From: an uncultured beta proteobacterium
GTDB taxonomy: Bacteria; Pseudomonadota; Gammaproteobacteria; Burkholderiales; SG8-41
Direction: 5' to 3'
DNA: 64,000 bases
Assembly (NCBI GenBank): GCA_903885665.1
Contig: CAISJL010000117.1
Coordinates: forward strand, 3,479 to 67,478
Part shown: positions 11,442-18,651 of the stretch, one piece after another
How positions within the stretch are numbered: the stretch's first letter is position 1
How the letters are laid out: each line of letters begins with the position of its first letter
Translations under genes and position numbers: made by a program
Notes under the pieces: model-generated
What the model saw: only the letters and a program-made list of their open reading frames with translations
Databases searched by the model: none
What the model was told of the DNA's origin: nothing

Positions 11442-11673
11442 GGTTTGTAGTAGAAGGATTGGGTGGCACGGGGTCGCAACCGCCCGCATGCCAGGGGTGA
11501 CATTTCGCGAGGCGTTTCAGCGTTAACCACAGCCCGCGTAGCGTGCCGTGTTGGATGATGGCTTCTAGTGCATACGCCGAGCATGTCGGATAGAAGCGAC
11601 AGTGCATACCAAAAAACGGCGAGAGCGCGAGGCGATAGCCTTGTATGAGTTTGATGCATAGTCGTTGGATCAT
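11410..11673 (-). CDS. yidD: Membrane protein insertion efficiency factor YidD
   Basis: LIQGYRLALSP, HCRFYPTCSAYA, RLAKCHPWHAGGCDPVP. The 3' end overlaps rlmI by 32 bp. Confidence 0.9.
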   Translation of the reverse strand: MIQRLCIKLIQGYRLALSPFFGMHCRFYPTCSAYALEAIIQHGTLRGLWLTLKRLAKCHPWHAGGCDPVPPNPSTTNPTSAPDTTNP

Positions 11674-11713
11674 GCGGGCTAGTATAACGCGCTCGGGTTG
11701 CGAGTATGTGGCC

Positions 11714-11744
11714 TTGACCTTGCGGACGGCAGCGAGGTTATAAT
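11714..11744 (+). promoter_or_regulatory. Sigma70-type promoter with a 19-bp spacer containing a dyad (MerR/CueR-like architecture)
   Basis: TTGACC-N19-TATAAT; ACCTTGC-N8-GCGAGGT imperfect inverted repeat overlaps the -35 and spacer. Confidence 0.5.
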
Positions 11745-11755
11745 AGACTGGCATC

Positions 11756-11770
11756 TGATGATAATCATCA
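11756..11770. promoter_or_regulatory. Perfect 7-1-7 palindrome, Fur-family box-like (or an RNA hairpin)
   Basis: TGATGAT-A-ATCATCA, one mismatch per half from the Fur 7-1-7 TGATAAT-N-ATTATCA; sits just after the predicted start site. Confidence 0.4.
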
Positions 11771-11878
11771 CGCTAGGGACTGCCCCGAAGCGGTAACCTT
11801 ACAAATAAAAAATAAGCACTAAAAATAAACACCGGAAATTTAGAAAATATATAACGACTTAATTTTATTGATATTTAA

Positions 11879-12295
11879 ATGCGCCTATTGAACCAACAAG
11901 ACATTCGGACCGACCGCAGCGGTGGCTTTGCCACCCTCTGGCGGATCTTGTTGATTGGCGCATTATTGCTCAGCCAGTATGGCGCGCTCAGTCATGCCTT
12001 AGCGCACGCTAGTCGCGCTGCGACGCGCGGTGTCGAGCAACTGGAGGGCGCAAGCCCGGTTGAGGTCGTGCGCAGTGTGGTGGAGTCTACGACTACATCG
12101 CCCTTATCAGCACCTATCAACGATTGGTGTGCGTTCGATGGCCTGTGGCTACAAGCGCTGGCTGGCTTATGTGTGGCCTTGTTGGTGTTCCAGGCGGTGG
12201 TGCGCGTAGCGACCCAAAATGCACCACTGATTTTGTTGTGGCTGCCTCAAAGCCATTGTCATTACCGTAGTCGGGGACCTCCACCCCGCATCTGA
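11879..12295 (+). CDS. DUF2946/CruR-like leader protein with RGPP arrest motif, CxxC-less variant
   Basis: N-terminal TM/signal, H39-x3-H43, C84-x2-D87, ends HCHYRSRGPPPRI; first gene before a TonB-dependent receptor. Confidence 0.7.
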   Translation: MRLLNQQDIRTDRSGGFATLWRILLIGALLLSQYGALSHALAHASRAATRGVEQLEGASPVEVVRSVVESTTTSPLSAPINDWCAFDGLWLQALAGLCVALLVFQAVVRVATQNAPLILLWLPQSHCHYRSRGPPPRI

Positions 12296-12418
12296 AATTG
12301 CGGATCACAATTCGTAGCTAGCGCTTGCCAGTGGTCAGGCGCTTGCTGATTTCAGTATGCAATTGCGGTTGTTTATTCGTCGTATAGAGACGAATAGCGA
12401 CCTATTTTGGAGATTAAA

Positions 12419-14560
12419 ATGTTGATTAAACAATCATGGCTGCTGCTGATCGCAGGGCTATTGACTACCCTCAGTCATGCACAAGAGCGCTCGATGGGGG
12501 TGCTGAGTCCTCAGCAGTCTAGGGCGAATACCGATCCTGCGGTGTTACCCGAAGTGGTGGTCACGGGCAATCCGTTGGGCAGTGAGTTGTTTGAGTTGGC
12601 GACCCCGTCGGCAGTGTTAAGTGGTACTGCCTTACAACTGCAACGGCGCTCAACCCTAGGCGATACTTTGCAGAATTTACCGGGAATGAGTGCTACGGGT
12701 TTTGGTCCGAACGCGAGTCGGCCAGTGATTCGTGGGCTCGATGGCGACCGTACGCATATTTTGCAAAATGGTGCGGGGGTGATTGATGCCTCCGCTTTAA
12801 GTGCCGATCACGCCGTTGCCCTCGATCCATTAGTGATGGAGCGGGCAGAAGTCGTGCGTGGGCCGGCGGCTTTGTTCTATGGCGGTAACGCTGTTGGTGG
12901 CGTAGTGAACGTGATTGACAATCGTATTCCACAAGCAGCCAATCAGGGGTTTTCAGGTCGTTTTGAAGCGCGCTACGGTGGTCCCGAACAAGAGCAGGCG
13001 CATGCAGTGGTGCTTGAGGGCGGTAGTGTAGAGGATCAAGGTGCGCAGTGGGCGCTTCATGCCGACGCTTATACCCGGTCAGCGGATGACTTGCGGATTA
13101 AAAACTACGCGCGCTCAGCGCGCCTGCGTGCGGCTGATCCGCAAAGCACTGAAACTCAATATCGCTTAACGAATAGCGCGGCTGCGGGTGAGGGGGGGGC
13201 AGTCGGGGTGTCTAGGGTCTGGGGTAGTGGCTATGTCGGGCTATCAGTGGCACAGTTTAATTCGCGCTACGGCACGGTGGCGGAGCCCACAGTCACTATC
13301 GATATGCAAAGCAGCCGTTTTGATGTAGCCGGTGAGGCGCGCGAGTTGGGTGGATTAGTCTCGGCGCTCAAATGGAAGGCGAGTGCAACCAACTACAATC
13401 ATCAAGAGCTCGATAGCGGCACAGTTGCGACAGTGTTCCGTAACAAGGGTCAGGAGTTGCAAGTCGAAGCACAGCATGCGCCGTGGCGAAATCTGAAAGG
13501 TGCGGTTGGTATGCAGGTTGCGCAAAACACTTTAACCGCCACTGGTGATGAGGCGTTTTTGCCCTCGACCCAAACCCAATCGCAAGCCTTGTTTCTGTTT
13601 GAGGAGCTCACTTTAGGCGCTTGGAAGTGGACGGCAGGTGTGCGCCAACAAAATAGCCGTATCAGCAGCGGTGGCGGTGGCGAGATTCCTTATGGCGAGA
13701 CGAGTGCACGTTTTGATCCGGCCATGACGCGGCGTTTTAATGGGAATAGTGCAGCGCTAGGTGCGGTCTGGACACTACAGCCGGGGTGGGCTGTGGCCGT
13801 GAATGGTGCATACACTGAGCGCGCACCGTCCCAAACCGAGTTGTTTGCCAATGGCCCGCATGTAGCCACCGGGTACTACGAAGTAGGCAATAGCGCGTTT
13901 GGTGTCGAGCGCTCGCGTGCGATCGATATCGCCTTGCGACGTAAAACAGAGGCCTACAGTGCCAGTGTCAGTGTGTTTCAGAATCGCTTTGCGGGGTTTA
14001 TTACCCAATACGCCAGTGGTAACACCCGCGGCACCGATGGTGAACTCAATCCGACAGCCAATGACAGCGGCGTGTCTTCTAATACGGGTGACGACATCCT
14101 GCCCGAGTCTGTGTATCGCGCGGTGCCGGCGCGGTTTCGTGGCGCTGAGTTAGAAGCGGGGTGGCGTGTGCCCTACTCGGGGGCGCAGATCGAGTTGCTG
14201 CCGCAGATCAGTTATGTCCAAGCCAGCGACTTGAGCACTGACGTGCCCTTGCCGCGGATTGCGCCATTACGTTATGGCATGGGTTTGAATTATCGGCTCG
14301 ATCGTTTGGGTGGGCGGGTTGATATAACCCGAGTATCGGCTCAGCATCGATTGGCAGCCAGTGAGTTGGCCACTGATGGCTATACGATGTTGAATATGGC
14401 CTTAACCTATAAGCTGCCGGCACCAGGGGCGCGGCTCGAAGGTTTTGTGCGTGGCGTGAATTTGTTGAATGCGGAAGCACGTAATCACGCCTCTATGCTA
14501 AAAGATGTAGCACCTATGGGTGGGCGTAGCGTGCAGTTCGGGGTGCGTGGTCAGTTCTAG
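12419..14560 (+). CDS. TonB-dependent outer membrane receptor, ZnuD-like
   Basis: Signal peptide, TonB box PEVVVTG, GFGPNASRPVIRG, DASALSADHAV, ELFANGPHVAT, C-terminal Phe. GGAG RBS before ATG 12419. Confidence 0.88.
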   Translation: MLIKQSWLLLIAGLLTTLSHAQERSMGVLSPQQSRANTDPAVLPEVVVTGNPLGSELFELATPSAVLSGTALQLQRRSTLGDTLQNLPGMSATGFGPNASRPVIRGLDGDRTHILQNGAGVIDASALSADHAVALDPLVMERAEVVRGPAALFYGGNAVGGVVNVIDNRIPQAANQGFSGRFEARYGGPEQEQAHAVVLEGGSVEDQGAQWALHADAYTRSADDLRIKNYARSARLRAADPQSTETQYRLTNSAAAGEGGAVGVSRVWGSGYVGLSVAQFNSRYGTVAEPTVTIDMQSSRFDVAGEARELGGLVSALKWKASATNYNHQELDSGTVATVFRNKGQELQVEAQHAPWRNLKGAVGMQVAQNTLTATGDEAFLPSTQTQSQALFLFEELTLGAWKWTAGVRQQNSRISSGGGGEIPYGETSARFDPAMTRRFNGNSAALGAVWTLQPGWAVAVNGAYTERAPSQTELFANGPHVATGYYEVGNSAFGVERSRAIDIALRRKTEAYSASVSVFQNRFAGFITQYASGNTRGTDGELNPTANDSGVSSNTGDDILPESVYRAVPARFRGAELEAGWRVPYSGAQIELLPQISYVQASDLSTDVPLPRIAPLRYGMGLNYRLDRLGGRVDITRVSAQHRLAASELATDGYTMLNMALTYKLPAPGARLEGFVRGVNLLNAEARNHASMLKDVAPMGGRSVQFGVRGQF

Positions 14561-14638: not shown

Positions 14639-14746
14639 ATGAATCAACAGATGAAGCGTCAGAGTGCAGTTGGTGTTTCAGAGCAGACTACAGTGTGCGC
14701 CATGGGGTGTGGCGTAGCATTTTGTGCTGATTGTTGTAATGACTGA
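14639..14746 (+). CDS. Possible 35-aa Cys-rich small ORF overlapping the tonB start
   Basis: Hand translation MNQQMKRQSAVGVSEQTTVCAMGCGVAFCADCCND*; ATGACTGA overlap with the tonB ATG at 14739. No SD, below the ORF-track cutoff. Confidence 0.25.
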   Translation: MNQQMKRQSAVGVSEQTTVCAMGCGVAFCADCCND

Positions 14747-15500
14747 TTTGAACAGCATGCAGTTTGGATATTCATCGACAGCGATGCGGCGGGTGCAGTG
14801 CGGCTTATTGTTGAGTATCGCCGCGCATATGGTGGTGCTGACCTTGGCACCGGGTTGGTCTGTGACGCATTCACCACCAGGGTCAGCCTTAGCAGTGGTA
14901 TTGATGCCGCCGACATTAAAATCACCACCATCACCCCGAGCACTTCCTGCACCCACATTACCTTCATCGCCCCCATCATCTCTACCCCAACCATTACCAG
15001 TCAAAACGCCGTCGACATTGTCATCACCGTCATCACCACGGGTAATGCCAATGGCTAATCCGTCACTTGAAATACGTGCGGAGTCCAAGCTGGCTCTGGC
15101 AGTGACTGAATCGGCGGCTACGCCAAGCCATAGCGTACTGCCACCAGTCGCACGGGCCACCGCAGAGCCGCCGACAGTCGCAGCCTCACCCCCACTCAAG
15201 GCCGAAGCGGCGACACCGCCAGTATTTAATGCGGCATATTTGGGTAATACCGATGCGAAATATCCGTTGGCAGCGCGTCGTAATGGCGATGAGGGCAAGG
15301 TGATGTTGTTGGTCAAGGTCAGCGCTGAGGGTGTACCGGTGAAGGTCGACGTGTTTCAGAGTAGTGGGTTTCCAGCCTTAGACCGAGCCGCCTTAGACGC
15401 CGTGCGGGCTTGGCGTTTTGTGCCTGCACGTCAAAGTGGGAAAGCGGTAGAGGGTGAAGTGCGGGTGCCGGTTGTATTTCAATTGGGTGAGCGTGGCTAA
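14739..15500 (+). CDS. tonB: Energy transducer TonB
   Basis: N-terminal TM with SxxxH (SIAAH), Pro/Ser-rich linker, YPLAARRNGDEGKVML ... SSGFPALDRAALDAVRAWRFVPA. Start uncertain (14724-14784). Confidence 0.9.
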   Translation: MTDLNSMQFGYSSTAMRRVQCGLLLSIAAHMVVLTLAPGWSVTHSPPGSALAVVLMPPTLKSPPSPRALPAPTLPSSPPSSLPQPLPVKTPSTLSSPSSPRVMPMANPSLEIRAESKLALAVTESAATPSHSVLPPVARATAEPPTVAASPPLKAEAATPPVFNAAYLGNTDAKYPLAARRNGDEGKVMLLVKVSAEGVPVKVDVFQSSGFPALDRAALDAVRAWRFVPARQSGKAVEGEVRVPVVFQLGERG

Positions 15501-15559: not shown

Positions 15560-15958
15560 ATGCCCCCCATGAAATGGTTTTCGTATCGTCGCTCTGTTGT
15601 AGGCATGGCGCTATTGGCGTTCATGTTTGCCTTAGCCCACCCCTTGCTCGTACAAGCCCGACAGGCTTGGGACCCGTTGTTAGATGTTACTGTGTGTCGG
15701 GTCGTGGTATCTGATCAAAATGGTAGTGCTACAGCTAATTCAAGCCAAACGCCTACCGACACTCAGCCTGCATCGCTAACTGCTGGTCATTGTGCATGGT
15801 GCTTGACCAGTGTGGCAGTGCCACCTGTCGCGCCCATCTTGGTCAATGGACTGACTCTCGACCCTATTCCCGCACCATCGCCACCAGCATCGATTATTGT
15901 GCTGCGTGTGCATGCGGCCTTGCAGCCGCTCAATCCACGCGCCCCCCCGCGCGGCTAA
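15560..15958 (+). CDS. DUF2946 / CruR-like copper-responsive leader protein
   Basis: N-terminal hydrophobic segment, VC46, H77-C78-A-W-C81, Pro-rich stretch, C-terminal PRAPPRG. Confidence 0.82.
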   Translation: MPPMKWFSYRRSVVGMALLAFMFALAHPLLVQARQAWDPLLDVTVCRVVVSDQNGSATANSSQTPTDTQPASLTAGHCAWCLTSVAVPPVAPILVNGLTLDPIPAPSPPASIIVLRVHAALQPLNPRAPPRG

Positions 15959-16055: not shown

Positions 16056-16541
16056 ATGAAATTTTTCCGAGTGATTCTATGGACGCTGGTTAGCGCTATT
16101 TTGCTTGTAATGGTGAGCGGTGTGCGGGCGGCTGAGATCAGCGTGAAAGACGTCTGGATTCGCGCCACTGTGCCGGGACAATCTGCTACAGGAGCATTTA
16201 TGGCCTTAAGTAGTCATACCACGGTGCGCTTGGTTGGCGTTAGCAGCCCGATTGCCGGGCGTGCTGAAGTGCATCAGATGCGCTTGGAACAAGGCGTGAT
16301 GAAGATGCAAGCCATCCCCGCCCTAGAAGTACCTGCAGGTCAGACTGTGCAGTTAGCACCAGGTGCTTATCACGTGATGTTGATGCGTTTGTCCAAGCCG
16401 GTAGAGGCAGGTGCGCAAATCCCCATGCAATTGACTTTTGAGTTGGCCAATCAAAAACGTCAAACCGTTGAGGTGACTGCAACAGTGCGAGCTTTGAACG
16501 CTCAGAGAGGTGGAGATCATGGGCAACATCACAATCATTAA
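16056..16541 (+). CDS. Periplasmic copper chaperone PCu(A)C
   Basis: VWIRATVPG, EVHQM-x-GVMKM ... PGAYHVMLM (H(M)x10Mx21HxM type), His-rich tail HGQHHNH. Confidence 0.92.
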   Translation: MKFFRVILWTLVSAILLVMVSGVRAAEISVKDVWIRATVPGQSATGAFMALSSHTTVRLVGVSSPIAGRAEVHQMRLEQGVMKMQAIPALEVPAGQTVQLAPGAYHVMLMRLSKPVEAGAQIPMQLTFELANQKRQTVEVTATVRALNAQRGGDHGQHHNH

Positions 16542-18651
16542 ACGAGCGTGGGCTAGTTTGCTGGGGATATTGGGTTGTTGGGGTGTGGTGCTGGATGCTA
16601 CCGCCCAAACTGTAGAGTTTGCTGTATTACCCGAAGTCACGGTGACTGGCACCCGCGAGCAATCACAGATTAAACAGTCTGCGGTATCGGTGGGCGTGAT
16701 TGGACAATCGTCCATTGAATTTACCCGTCCCTCACACCCTCAGCAGATTCTTGGCCAGATTCCCGGAGTTGCGATAGGTGTTACGAATGGCGAAGGGCAT
16801 AACACAGCTATTCGCCAAGGGTTCTCAACCAGTCCGGTATATTTATTCCTAGAAGATGGGATACCCATTCGGGCAACAGGCAATTTTAATCATAACGCGC
16901 TCTACGAACTGAATTTACCCAGCGCAGGTGGCGTGGAGGTGATTCGCGGTATTGGTACCGCGCTCTATGGTTCTGATGCGATTGGCGGCACGATCAATGT
17001 GCTGACGAAAACACCGAGCGCGACTGCGCGCGCAGACGGTTCAGTGGAGATCGGGGGGCATGGGTTTGGTCGTGTGCTAGGCGGACTCGATAGCGGTCGC
17101 AGTGCGTTCGATGCCCTACGTGCGGACGTGAATATCACACACACCGATGGCTGGCGCGATCGCACGGCCTACGATAGGCAGAGCTTGAACCTGCGTTGGG
17201 ATCGTGAGATTGACAGCCAGACCTTGTCGAAAACGATTTTAGGGTATACCAAAATTGATCAGCAAACAGGAGCTAACAGTGCCTTGCCCTATGTCGATTA
17301 TATGAACAATCCAACTAAAAACTTACGGGCTGATGCGTATCGCAAAGTGGAGGCGCTACGCCTATCGACCGAGTGGATGCATGATATTGGAAATGGGCAG
17401 ATGGTGACCCTGGTTCCGTATCTGCGTAATAACAAAATGGATTTAAATGGCTCGTACAACTTTAGTGGAGATGCCCGAGTCGAAGTTACTGAAGTCACAT
17501 CGTATGGTTTAATGAGTAAGTATCGTAAAGACTTTAGTGATGCTTGGCGTACGCGAGTCATTGTCGGACTAGATCTCGATTACAGTCCAAGCACACGACT
17601 TGAAAATAAAATTGCGTTGACCACTTCAACCAGTAATGGTGCAACCAATTATGCTTGGACTGGCGCTTTGGGCGCGACAATTTATGACTACTCCACTGTT
17701 TATCAATCGGCGGCACCGTATACCCATCTCGAGGTCTCGCCACTGAGTAAATTAAGGGTCAGTCTGGGAGTGCGTTATGACACTATCCAATATACAAGCA
17801 ACAATAATTTAGCGGCCGGATATGTGACTAGCGGTAGCTATTATTACTATACTCCAGCGAATGCAAGCGCTAGTTTCTCGCGCGCTAGTCCAAAGCTCGG
17901 GGTGACATATGCACTCAGTGCTGCAGATGATGTGCATGCCTCATATCATCAGGGTTTTCGTACGCCCTCAGAGAGTCAGTTATTTAGAGGGGGGCGGGCT
18001 ACTACACAAGCAGAAGCCTTAGCGCTAGCCAATGCTGCAGCAGGGCTTAAGCCAATTACTGCTGACCAATATGAATTAGGTCTGCGTGGCCAGCGTCAGG
18101 CCTGGAATTATGAAGCGGTTGCTTATCAACTGACTAAAAAGAATGATCTGCTCAGTCAAAAAGATAGTACCGGCTACGCCGTACAAACTAATAATGGTGA
18201 AACTACCCATAGAGGCGTTGAGTTGGCCTTGGGCGCGCAATTCATGCCACAGTTTAGGACAGACCTTGCTGCATCCTATGCCAAACACAAATACGCGGAG
18301 TGGGTGACTTCAACGGTGAATTATTCGGGTAAAGAGATAGAGAGCGCGCCGCGTGTGTTGGGGAATCTACGTTTGAGCTGGAAGGCCGCATCAACAGCAA
18401 TGGTGCAGCTTGAAATGGTCAAAGTGGGCGCTTATTTTATGGATCAACTCAATACCCAACGCTATAACGGCTATGCACTCTACAACCTACGGTCGACTGT
18501 GCAGTTGACTCGGGATCTGAGTATGAGTGCGCAGTTATTGAATCTGACTAATCAGCGCTACGCCGATAGCGCATCTGGCACGGGCACTGCCGCATTGTAT
18601 GCGCCGGGCTTGCCACGTACCGCCTATGTTGGTCTGAATATGCGCTATTAA
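16519..18651 (+). CDS. TonB-dependent outer membrane receptor (putative copper-related)
   Basis: PEVTVTG TonB box, plug motif VEVIRGIGTALYGSDAIGGTIN, C-terminal NLTNQRY ... PGLPRTAYVGLNMRY. GGAG before ATG 16519. Confidence 0.88.
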   Translation: MGNITIIKRAWASLLGILGCWGVVLDATAQTVEFAVLPEVTVTGTREQSQIKQSAVSVGVIGQSSIEFTRPSHPQQILGQIPGVAIGVTNGEGHNTAIRQGFSTSPVYLFLEDGIPIRATGNFNHNALYELNLPSAGGVEVIRGIGTALYGSDAIGGTINVLTKTPSATARADGSVEIGGHGFGRVLGGLDSGRSAFDALRADVNITHTDGWRDRTAYDRQSLNLRWDREIDSQTLSKTILGYTKIDQQTGANSALPYVDYMNNPTKNLRADAYRKVEALRLSTEWMHDIGNGQMVTLVPYLRNNKMDLNGSYNFSGDARVEVTEVTSYGLMSKYRKDFSDAWRTRVIVGLDLDYSPSTRLENKIALTTSTSNGATNYAWTGALGATIYDYSTVYQSAAPYTHLEVSPLSKLRVSLGVRYDTIQYTSNNNLAAGYVTSGSYYYYTPANASASFSRASPKLGVTYALSAADDVHASYHQGFRTPSESQLFRGGRATTQAEALALANAAAGLKPITADQYELGLRGQRQAWNYEAVAYQLTKKNDLLSQKDSTGYAVQTNNGETTHRGVELALGAQFMPQFRTDLAASYAKHKYAEWVTSTVNYSGKEIESAPRVLGNLRLSWKAASTAMVQLEMVKVGAYFMDQLNTQRYNGYALYNLRSTVQLTRDLSMSAQLLNLTNQRYADSASGTGTAALYAPGLPRTAYVGLNMRY

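Follow-up and report, generated by a model that had tools for sequence, protein, structure and literature searches.

A candidate CruR-like arrest leader, probably zinc-responsive, upstream of a ZnuD-like receptor gene in uncultured Burkholderiales

The nearest characterised relative of the element described here is CruR (Bp2923) of Bordetella pertussis, whose RAPP motif (residues 139-142) lies three residues from the C-terminus and is separated from CxxC by 45 residues, a spacing that is conserved to 1-2 residues and needed for regulation, while the export signal is dispensable (Roy et al. 2022, PMC9426467). In the PURE system, toeprinting showed CruR stalled with one Pro codon of the motif in the P site and the other in the A site; among the RAPP-like arrest motifs RGPP is the strongest and the most resistant to elongation factor P (EF-P), bacterial proteomes avoid it more than any other tetrapeptide, and RGPP/RAPP are enriched at the C-termini of small exported upstream open reading frames (uORFs) in front of TonB-dependent receptors and copper genes (PMC12992588). 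Here, we analysed a 64,000-nucleotide stretch of DNA (hereafter the window) from an uncultured beta proteobacterium of the order Burkholderiales (contig CAISJL010000117.1, positions 3,479 to 67,478), with a focus on an open reading frame (ORF) at 11879-12295 of the window that ends in RGPP and precedes a TonB-dependent receptor gene. On balance, we favour the view that this ORF is a regulatory leader (uORF) of the ZnuD-like receptor, namely a CruR-like arrest leader that probably responds to zinc. To our knowledge, the metal-sensing arrest peptides demonstrated so far (CruR and CutF) all respond to copper. A first-pass annotation of the same DNA had already suggested a CruR-like leader that lacks CxxC and senses a metal other than copper, and this suggestion is now supported by invariant motifs, fixed spacings, sub-threshold DUF2946 matches in relatives and a zinc-type neighbourhood.

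The leader ORF was confirmed as a genuine conserved gene that stands above chance expectation. The whole genome (G000; 3.0 Mb, 99.97% complete) contains 12,721 open frames that encode 60 amino acids or more, and only three of these have R[AG]PP within their last 10 residues, namely the leader ORF, the neighbouring CruR-like ORF and one frame that is likely spurious. A word-seeded search with the single protein retrieved only a 97% twin, an exhaustive phmmer search gave five representatives, and a profile built from the alignment reached the whole family. By six-frame search, homologues of 123-133 amino acids with 25-38% identity were detected in 17 of 36 genomes of the genus. A TonB-dependent receptor gene whose product starts with '...LPEVxVTGNPLG' followed ~90-106 nt 3' of the leader in all 14 loci with sufficient downstream sequence (16 loci in total). 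The profile search extended the family to at least 260 protein clusters from metagenomic Burkholderiales/Betaproteobacteria, all of which are annotated as 'hypothetical' and none of which has a Pfam domain.

Conservation within the family is concentrated in a few positions. In an alignment of 122 leaders, mean column identity was only ~45%, and 13 residues were invariant (L29, L30, Q33, A36, L37, H39, A40, H43, C84, D87, L94, P134 and P135), with R132 and G133 conserved in at least 90% of the sequences. The motifs singled out by the first-pass annotation (H39/H43, C84/D87 and RGPP) are thus invariant or nearly so: HALxH was present in 120 of 121 homologues, the motif C-x-[FL]-D in 119 of 121 and [ST]R[GA]PP in approximately 113 of 121. 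Most telling, distances were kept to the residue, as Cys and Arg lay exactly 48 positions apart in 119 of 119 homologues and the tail after Pro-Pro was exactly three residues long in 121 of 121. A single Cys was found in 96 of the 122 family proteins, and most relatives of the window leader carry a histidine-rich linker (median five His).

The window leader consists of a basic N-terminus, a hydrophobic helix (approximately residues 17-44), a variable 40-residue linker, CAFD, a second hydrophobic helix and the ending HCH-YRS-RGPP-PRI-stop, in which H126-C127-H128 immediately precedes Y129-R-S-R132-G-P-P. Its candidate ligands are encoded at 11993-11995 (H39), 12005-12007 (H43), 12128-12130 (C84) and 12137-12139 (D87). 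C84 and R132 are 48 residues apart, as compared to 49 between C78 and R127 in the DUF2946 ORF at 15560-15958, which bears out the nearly identical spacing noticed previously; between D87 and R132 there are 44 intervening residues. The basic stretch at the N-terminus is followed by the hydrophobic segment ILLIGALLLSQYGAL, a candidate signal peptide or N-in/C-out transmembrane segment. An AlphaFold2 model based on the 122-sequence alignment predicted helices at residues 15-56 and 82-121, with a per-residue confidence (predicted local distance difference test, pLDDT) of 92-94 over residues 21-40. The 80 nt upstream of the leader ATG (11800-11878) contain 17.5% G+C and no Shine-Dalgarno (SD) sequence, and the relatives likewise have none; this suggests that initiation is low-level or S1-dependent, as reported for CruR.

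Kinship to the DUF2946/CruR proteins is visible through profiles only, and pairwise BLASTP revealed no similarity between the window leader and the DUF2946 ORF at 15560. Of 22 family members, 14 matched the Pfam profile of DUF2946 (PF11162; gathering cut-off 23.7 bits) from end to end (profile positions 3-117 of 117), all with sub-threshold scores (11-23 bits). When the family was aligned with canonical DUF2946 by hhalign, helix fell on helix and C84 on the first Cys of CxxC, and intermediates in other Burkholderiales combine an AQxGAxxHxxxH anchor with CxxC and S-R-A-P-P. As for the formal features of DUF2946/CruR proteins, the window leader has the C-terminal arrest motif with a three-residue tail and a distance from Cys to the arrest motif conserved to 1-2 residues, whereas it stays below the profile threshold and lacks CxxC; it is the first gene, 123 nt before a TonB-dependent transporter (TBDT) gene, though not in an operon of copper-homeostasis genes (TBDT, PepSY_TM, PCuAC, ScoC, YcnI, CopC). 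It falls into the RAPP-like class, with an R-[AG]-P-P core near the C-terminus of a small, predicted-exported protein upstream of a receptor gene, and differs from the ApdA/ApdP/SecM type, where sec/yidC is encoded downstream, in that the gene after it encodes a TonB-dependent receptor. These comparisons support placing the family within the DUF2946/CruR superfamily of metal-sensing arrest peptides, as a branch that is divergent and still without annotation.

Further variants of such leaders were observed. Two loci of the same genus (L042, G009:C6; L047, G033:C16) contain another DUF2946-like form, in which the linker is very rich in His, an HSCCHH motif is present and the protein ends in Q-R-P-P-R-A; this form scored 22.9 bits against PF11162 for L047, just under the cut-off of 23.7, and 25.9 bits in the six-frame genome search for L042. 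In other Burkholderiales families (L079, L086 and L088-L096), leaders possess an AQQGAxxHALSH anchor, PHSPxCxxC or C-x2-H, and an S-R-[AG]-P-P-x3 ending, and many of them precede a gene for a protein with an N-terminal coiled coil (A.D.DL..IR.EI..LK..YE.RI..LE.RL) and not a TonB receptor. The varied motifs and targets of the latter suggest that ligand motif and target genes diversify together.

The neighbourhood of the leader family is of the zinc type. The best NCBIfam match of the receptor following the window leader is ZnuD (NF038289; 303.7 bits, below the cut-off of 950) and its best solved structural relative is also ZnuD (4rdr, E 6.6e-57), matches that justify the label 'ZnuD-like' and not equivalence to ZnuD. 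This receptor is 63% identical to the one after the leader at locus L067 of a metagenomic relative, where the leader-receptor pair closes a zinc-starvation island composed of a Fur-family gene, Zip, HisI-like/PRA-CH, two CobW/COG0523 genes, DksA-like, DUF1826, an ATP-binding cassette (ABC) ATPase, a MacB/FtsX permease, a small Cys/His protein and DUF3299. The ABC, permease and DUF3299 genes correspond to ZrgC/ZrgB/ZrgE, a Zur-regulated system of Vibrio (PMC9817125). At two loci a second copy of the RGPP leader (...PYD[SP]RGPPxIS; L052:6758-7135, L066:4780-5139), directly upstream of the leader-receptor pair, heads the operon of ABC ATPase, MacB-FtsX permease and DUF3299, and in the genome G034 a Zur-like Fur-family gene stands in its place (L053:11187-11660, minus strand). 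A His2-Cys-Asp combination with a single Cys is a typical set of zinc ligands and not a Cu(I) set. Considering the gene context and this ligand set, the metal of the leader is probably other than copper, with zinc as the most likely one.

Between the permease and DUF3299 genes of these islands, we observed a conserved exported protein of ~90 amino acids rich in Cys and His (...KCFE.GKSEKECHGQLAKDCKGLAIGKYCGM.H.H; L066:7141-7416, L067:7145-7411 and L053:9005-9439, minus strand), which has no Pfam or NCBIfam match and may play a role in periplasmic metal handling. ZrgD (DUF2607) was considered as a known counterpart of the leader and rejected, as the DUF2607 hidden Markov model gave only noise in 41 genomes. 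A table of the Caulobacter Zur regulon lists a DUF2946 gene with a predicted Zur box beside czrCBA/zntA (PMC4176598), which we mention as an unchecked lead and not as support.

In the relatives, the end of the leader and the start of the receptor gene are connected at the RNA level. A strong duplex joins the 25 nt upstream of the receptor AUG to the 3' end of the leader, counted from its Pro-Pro codons to 10 nt beyond the stop codon, and within it an anti-SD-like CUCC pairs with GGAG. The energies of this duplex were -17 to -25 kcal/mol, as compared to -8 to -14 kcal/mol for shuffled sequences, and at most 3% of the shuffles matched it in 14 of 16 loci, although its pairing registers and sequences vary between loci. 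The predicted probability that the SD is unpaired was ~0 in free mRNA and 0.3-0.95 with a ribosome at the arrest site, so that coupling in the relatives is, by analogy, of the CutF/SecM type. Right after the leader stop, relatives (e.g., L066:8388-8480 and L066:5140-5258) also have a 6-bp GC hairpin (GCCGGUCUGACCGGC) followed by AUUCC-U5-7, which resembles a weak intrinsic terminator or pause site, is enclosed by the SD-masking helix and is absent in the window.

The window has a different RNA arrangement between the two genes (Table 1). The 181-nt stretch folded better than all 200 shuffles (z = -3.85). In the closing helix of its three-way domain, the last two sense codons, the stop codon and 3 nt (GCAUCUGAAAU) pair with GAUUUCAG-UAUGC, and the minimum-free-energy fold contains the pairing between the heptamers CTGAAAT (12292-12298), which holds the stop, and ATTTCAG (12349-12355). 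The 3' partner of the stop-codon arm (12348-12360) lies ~50 nt upstream of the receptor SD. A stalled ribosome with P134 in the P site would extend to approximately 12293 and overlap the 5' arm of the closing helix; the earlier idea that it covers this strand therefore holds as a matter of geometry, except that the helix does not touch the ribosome-binding site of the receptor. The second hairpin, which is trailed by UAUUUUGG, is interposed between the stop-codon helix and the receptor SD and ends 6 nt before GGAG. Relatives lack a counterpart of it, and in two sister strains its outer stem is weakened. This hairpin is possibly a weak intrinsic terminator or attenuator; a promoter/terminator scan left it unflagged and found nothing relevant. 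The coordinates, motifs, heptamers and second hairpin given by the first-pass annotation all proved correct, and our folds agree with it on the stop-codon pairing and on a hairpin ending just before the SD.

Other searches of this region returned little. No Rfam family matched in 11600-12500, and the intergenic sequence is not repeated elsewhere in the genome. An imperfect 23-nt direct repeat was observed (12296-12318 versus 12361-12383; AATTGCGG-6 nt-ATTCGT), whose second copy forms the 5' arm of the second hairpin; an antiterminator built on it was inspected by eye and rejected, as no convincing alternative pairing was seen. A short frame of 22 codons (12357-12425), which runs into the receptor start, lacks an SD and was regarded as spurious.

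Table 1. Positions in the window of the leader, the receptor gene and the associated features
Feature	Position	Strand	Remarks
Perfect 7-1-7 palindrome TGATGATaATCATCA, Fur-box-like	11757..11771		One mismatch per half-site to TGATAAT
Leader ORF, 138 amino acids	11879..12295	+	ATG 11879, TGA 12293-12295; homologues, alignments, AlphaFold2
H39-A-L-A-H43 (HALxH), outer end of predicted signal-anchor helix	11993..12007	+	Proposed metal ligands
C84-A-F-D87, at the place of CruR CxxC	12128..12139	+	Proposed metal ligands
R132-G-P-P arrest motif (putative here)	12272..12283	+	Followed by P-R-I and stop
Three-way RNA domain	12287..12360	+	Folds, -31.9 kcal/mol
Second hairpin, 14 pairs, one bulge, then UAUUUUGGAG	12367..12402	+	-17.9 kcal/mol
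Receptor Shine-Dalgarno GGAG	12409..12412	+	6 nt before ATG 12419
ZnuD-like TonB-dependent receptor, 713 amino acids	12419..14560	+	Plug and barrel domains; ATG 123 nt past leader
TonB-family gene between the two leader-receptor units	14724..15500	+	TonB_C, E 4.3e-21
Canonical CruR-like leader (DUF2946; HCAWC ... RAPPRG)	15560..15958	+	PF11162 29.5 bits, above cut-off

From these data, we infer the following course of events. A predicted signal-anchor helix at the N-terminus would direct the nascent leader to the membrane, and the ribosome would stall on R132-G-P134-P135, presumably with the P134 codon (12278-12280) in the P site and the P135 codon (12281-12283) in the A site. At this point C84 and D87 would be 47-50 residues from the peptidyl-transferase centre, just past the tunnel or translocon and beside H39/H43 at the outer end of the anchor helix. 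When the metal is scarce, the arrest would persist and the receptor gene would be expressed; when it is available, the metal, most likely Zn2+, would bridge His2-Cys-Asp, the chain would fold or be pulled, and release of the arrest followed by termination would lower expression. Such a metal-relieved arrest follows the logic of CruR and suits an uptake gene. In the relatives, where the codons from Pro-Pro to the stop pair with the receptor SD, a parked ribosome would free the SD. In the window, the stalled ribosome would open the stop-codon helix instead, and two candidates for the downstream step are attenuation at the second hairpin and Rho-dependent termination as in CruR; the stretch 12220-12320 is modestly richer in C than in G.

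Several observations weigh against this interpretation. The window leader itself has no DUF2946 match even at E<=10, nor any Pfam hit at all, and hhalign assigns a probability of only 14% to the match between the family and canonical DUF2946. The AlphaFold2 model has low global confidence (predicted TM-score 0.34) and gives no evidence for a joint metal site, and the dispensable export signal of CruR makes the site of metal sensing uncertain. At the RNA level, the SD of the window is not sequestered, with a probability of being unpaired of 0.64 in free mRNA and 0.38 with a stalled ribosome; the SD-masking duplex is absent (-8.3 kcal/mol, equalled by 20% of shuffles), and folding under the constraint of a stalled or terminating ribosome produced no switch at the second hairpin or the SD. 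The linker of the window leader contains no histidine, as compared to the family median of five, and it is the only family member among the sequences compared that lacks one. In addition, this 99.97%-complete genome contains a Zip homologue and lacks Zur, ZnuA, COG0523/CobW and DUF3299. The promoter palindrome (see below) and the missing zinc genes could mean that the unit has been rewired in this lineage, e.g., to iron/Fur control; the window copy of the leader is under constraint but may be rewired.

Among the alternatives, each of which we consider unlikely, the one that survives best is that the arrest leader senses copper like other DUF2946 proteins, or that it belongs here to an iron/Fur-controlled unit. 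Kinship to the DUF2946 superfamily, the adjoining copper-type unit with one tonB gene common to both units, and the loss of linker histidines in the window all speak for it, as does the promoter. The Fur-like 7-1-7 palindrome lies just downstream of a TATAAT-like hexamer (11739-11744) and is a possible operator of the leader promoter; it is unchanged in three sister strains while the surrounding 176-nt promoter region differs at 21 positions (12%), although the statistical support for this conservation is weak. The only Fur-family regulator of the genome is a true Fur (C120:5482-5835, between recN and bamE), whereas most congeners have two or three Fur-family genes, the third of which often adjoins the leader island. 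On the other hand, the genome has no second copy of the palindrome at 0-1 mismatch, and a genome-wide search for a regulon yielded no informative near-matches, so that no Fur regulon is tied to it. Moreover, the copper-type operon already has a leader of its own, as a canonical CxxC/RAPP DUF2946 leader with PCuAC and a second receptor lies ~3 kb downstream both in the window and across the genus; in the window this leader heads a PCuAC gene (16056-16541; E 4.5e-36) and a second receptor gene (16510-18651). The proximity of the zinc-type and the canonical leader implies that two sensors coexist side by side. The ligand set, typical of zinc and not of Cu(I), and the resemblance of the receptor to ZnuD and to the receptor of the zinc-starvation island also argue against copper or iron.

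Less probable again is that the window leader is a decaying remnant of a regulatory family, which no longer controls its receptor. The window copy has lost three features of the relatives, namely their linker rich in His, their SD-masking helix and the GC hairpin after their stop codon; the neighbouring zinc genes and Zur are gone as well, and the leader differs from the sister strains by as many non-synonymous as synonymous changes (four each). This would be difficult to reconcile with the retention of all 13 family-invariant residues, the 48-residue spacing and the three-residue tail. Furthermore, no substitution was found in 12199-12343 in the three sister strains, the divergence of the leader (1.9%) resembles that of the receptor (1.6%) and is far below the 12% of the promoter region, and significant RNA structure surrounds the stop codon in the intergenic region.

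The weakest alternative, a small membrane or periplasmic metal-binding accessory protein (metallochaperone or receptor partner) whose RGPP ending is non-regulatory, could account for the histidine-rich linkers of the relatives, which recall periplasmic zinc chaperones, for the invariant Q33, A36 and L37 inside the anchor helix, which could reflect a protein partner, and for the second hydrophobic helix predicted at 82-121, but it is improbable given that residue-exact spacings in a sequence hardly conserved outside its motifs fit a ruler relative to the ribosome and not a fold, that RGPP, reported as the most excluded tetrapeptide, is enriched where small exported uORFs end (PMC12992588), that the last codons of the leader pair with the SD of the next gene in 14 of 16 relatives, that one type of leader stands before both a receptor operon and an ABC transporter operon, and that CruR is thought to be short-lived.

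The favoured reading of a zinc-responsive arrest leader can be carried further, if tentatively. The nascent chain might act as a molecular ruler: with the ribosome on RGPP, Cys84/Asp87 might leave the translocon exactly 48 residues behind the arrest point and meet His39/His43, and periplasmic Zn2+ bridging all four might pull the chain and release the arrest. The leader might then be the only zinc-specific regulator left in a streamlined genome without Zur, ZnuABC and COG0523, and the first post-transcriptional bacterial zinc sensor described, all of which we regard as rather doubtful at present. The general class was catalogued in 2025 and its copper examples have been characterised; no description of the His2-Cys-Asp zinc-associated family was found in the literature searched. 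This family represents a natural experiment, in which the CruR scaffold carries His2-Cys-Asp instead of CxxC at an exact spacing and beside a canonical copper-type CruR, and it could reveal how a nascent chain encodes its choice of ligand. If true, the proposed function would explain how a zinc-uptake gene is controlled in streamlined freshwater Burkholderiales that lack Zur.

In comparison with known zinc systems, the genes behind the leader are of the same kinds as ZnuD of Neisseria (PDB 4rdr) and ZrgABCDE of Vibrio (PMC9817125), that is, a ZnuD-like receptor and, in relatives, ZrgC/ZrgB/ZrgE-like genes (ABC ATPase, permease and DUF3299). Those systems are under transcriptional control by Zur, whereas here a leader peptide stands in front and the genome has no Zur. 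ApdA, ApdP, ApcA, SecM and the RGPP/RAPP uORFs of the 2025 catalogue share this core arrest motif, which in them too lies close to the C-terminus of a small exported protein (PMC10951233, PMC10987492, PMC12992588), with the difference that ApdA, ApdP, ApcA and SecM monitor Sec/YidC activity. The text of the catalogue (PMC12992588) contains neither 'zinc' nor 'DUF2946', and neither the His2-Cys-Asp family nor the 48-residue spacing.

Among DUF2946-like peptides, CutF of Rhodobacter capsulatus is a secreted nascent peptide that senses metal outside the cytoplasm (bioRxiv 10.1101/2025.02.05.636593, 10.1101/2022.11.11.516240). It stalls on a C-terminal proline motif and thereby melts an mRNA stem over the ribosome-binding site of the next gene, an RNA logic also seen among the relatives of the leader (14 of 16). 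However, CutF uses CxxxC and an EF-P-sensitive PPP motif, and metal induces its stalling and switches on a detoxifying oxidase; as the leader precedes an uptake receptor, the opposite sign (metal relieves the arrest) would be expected, and the window has no stem that shields the ribosome-binding site. CruR is the closer counterpart: both are small first genes of TonB-receptor operons with a long structured intergenic region, the N-terminal export signal of CruR has a predicted counterpart in the leader, both have a Cys motif at a fixed distance from R-x-P-P (44 intervening residues in the leader and 45 in CruR) and an arrest motif exactly three residues from the C-terminus, and relatives of the leader match the DUF2946 profile from end to end. 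The two differ in that the leader has RGPP where CruR has RAPP, and a single Cys in C-x2-D together with an invariant H-x3-H where CruR has CxxC. Coupling in the leader relatives looks like SD masking, whereas CruR acts through Rho-dependent termination, and the neighbours of the leader are of the zinc type (a ZnuD-like receptor and, in relatives, ZrgBCE-like ABC, COG0523, Zip and a Zur-like gene), in contrast to the copper-type neighbours of CruR.

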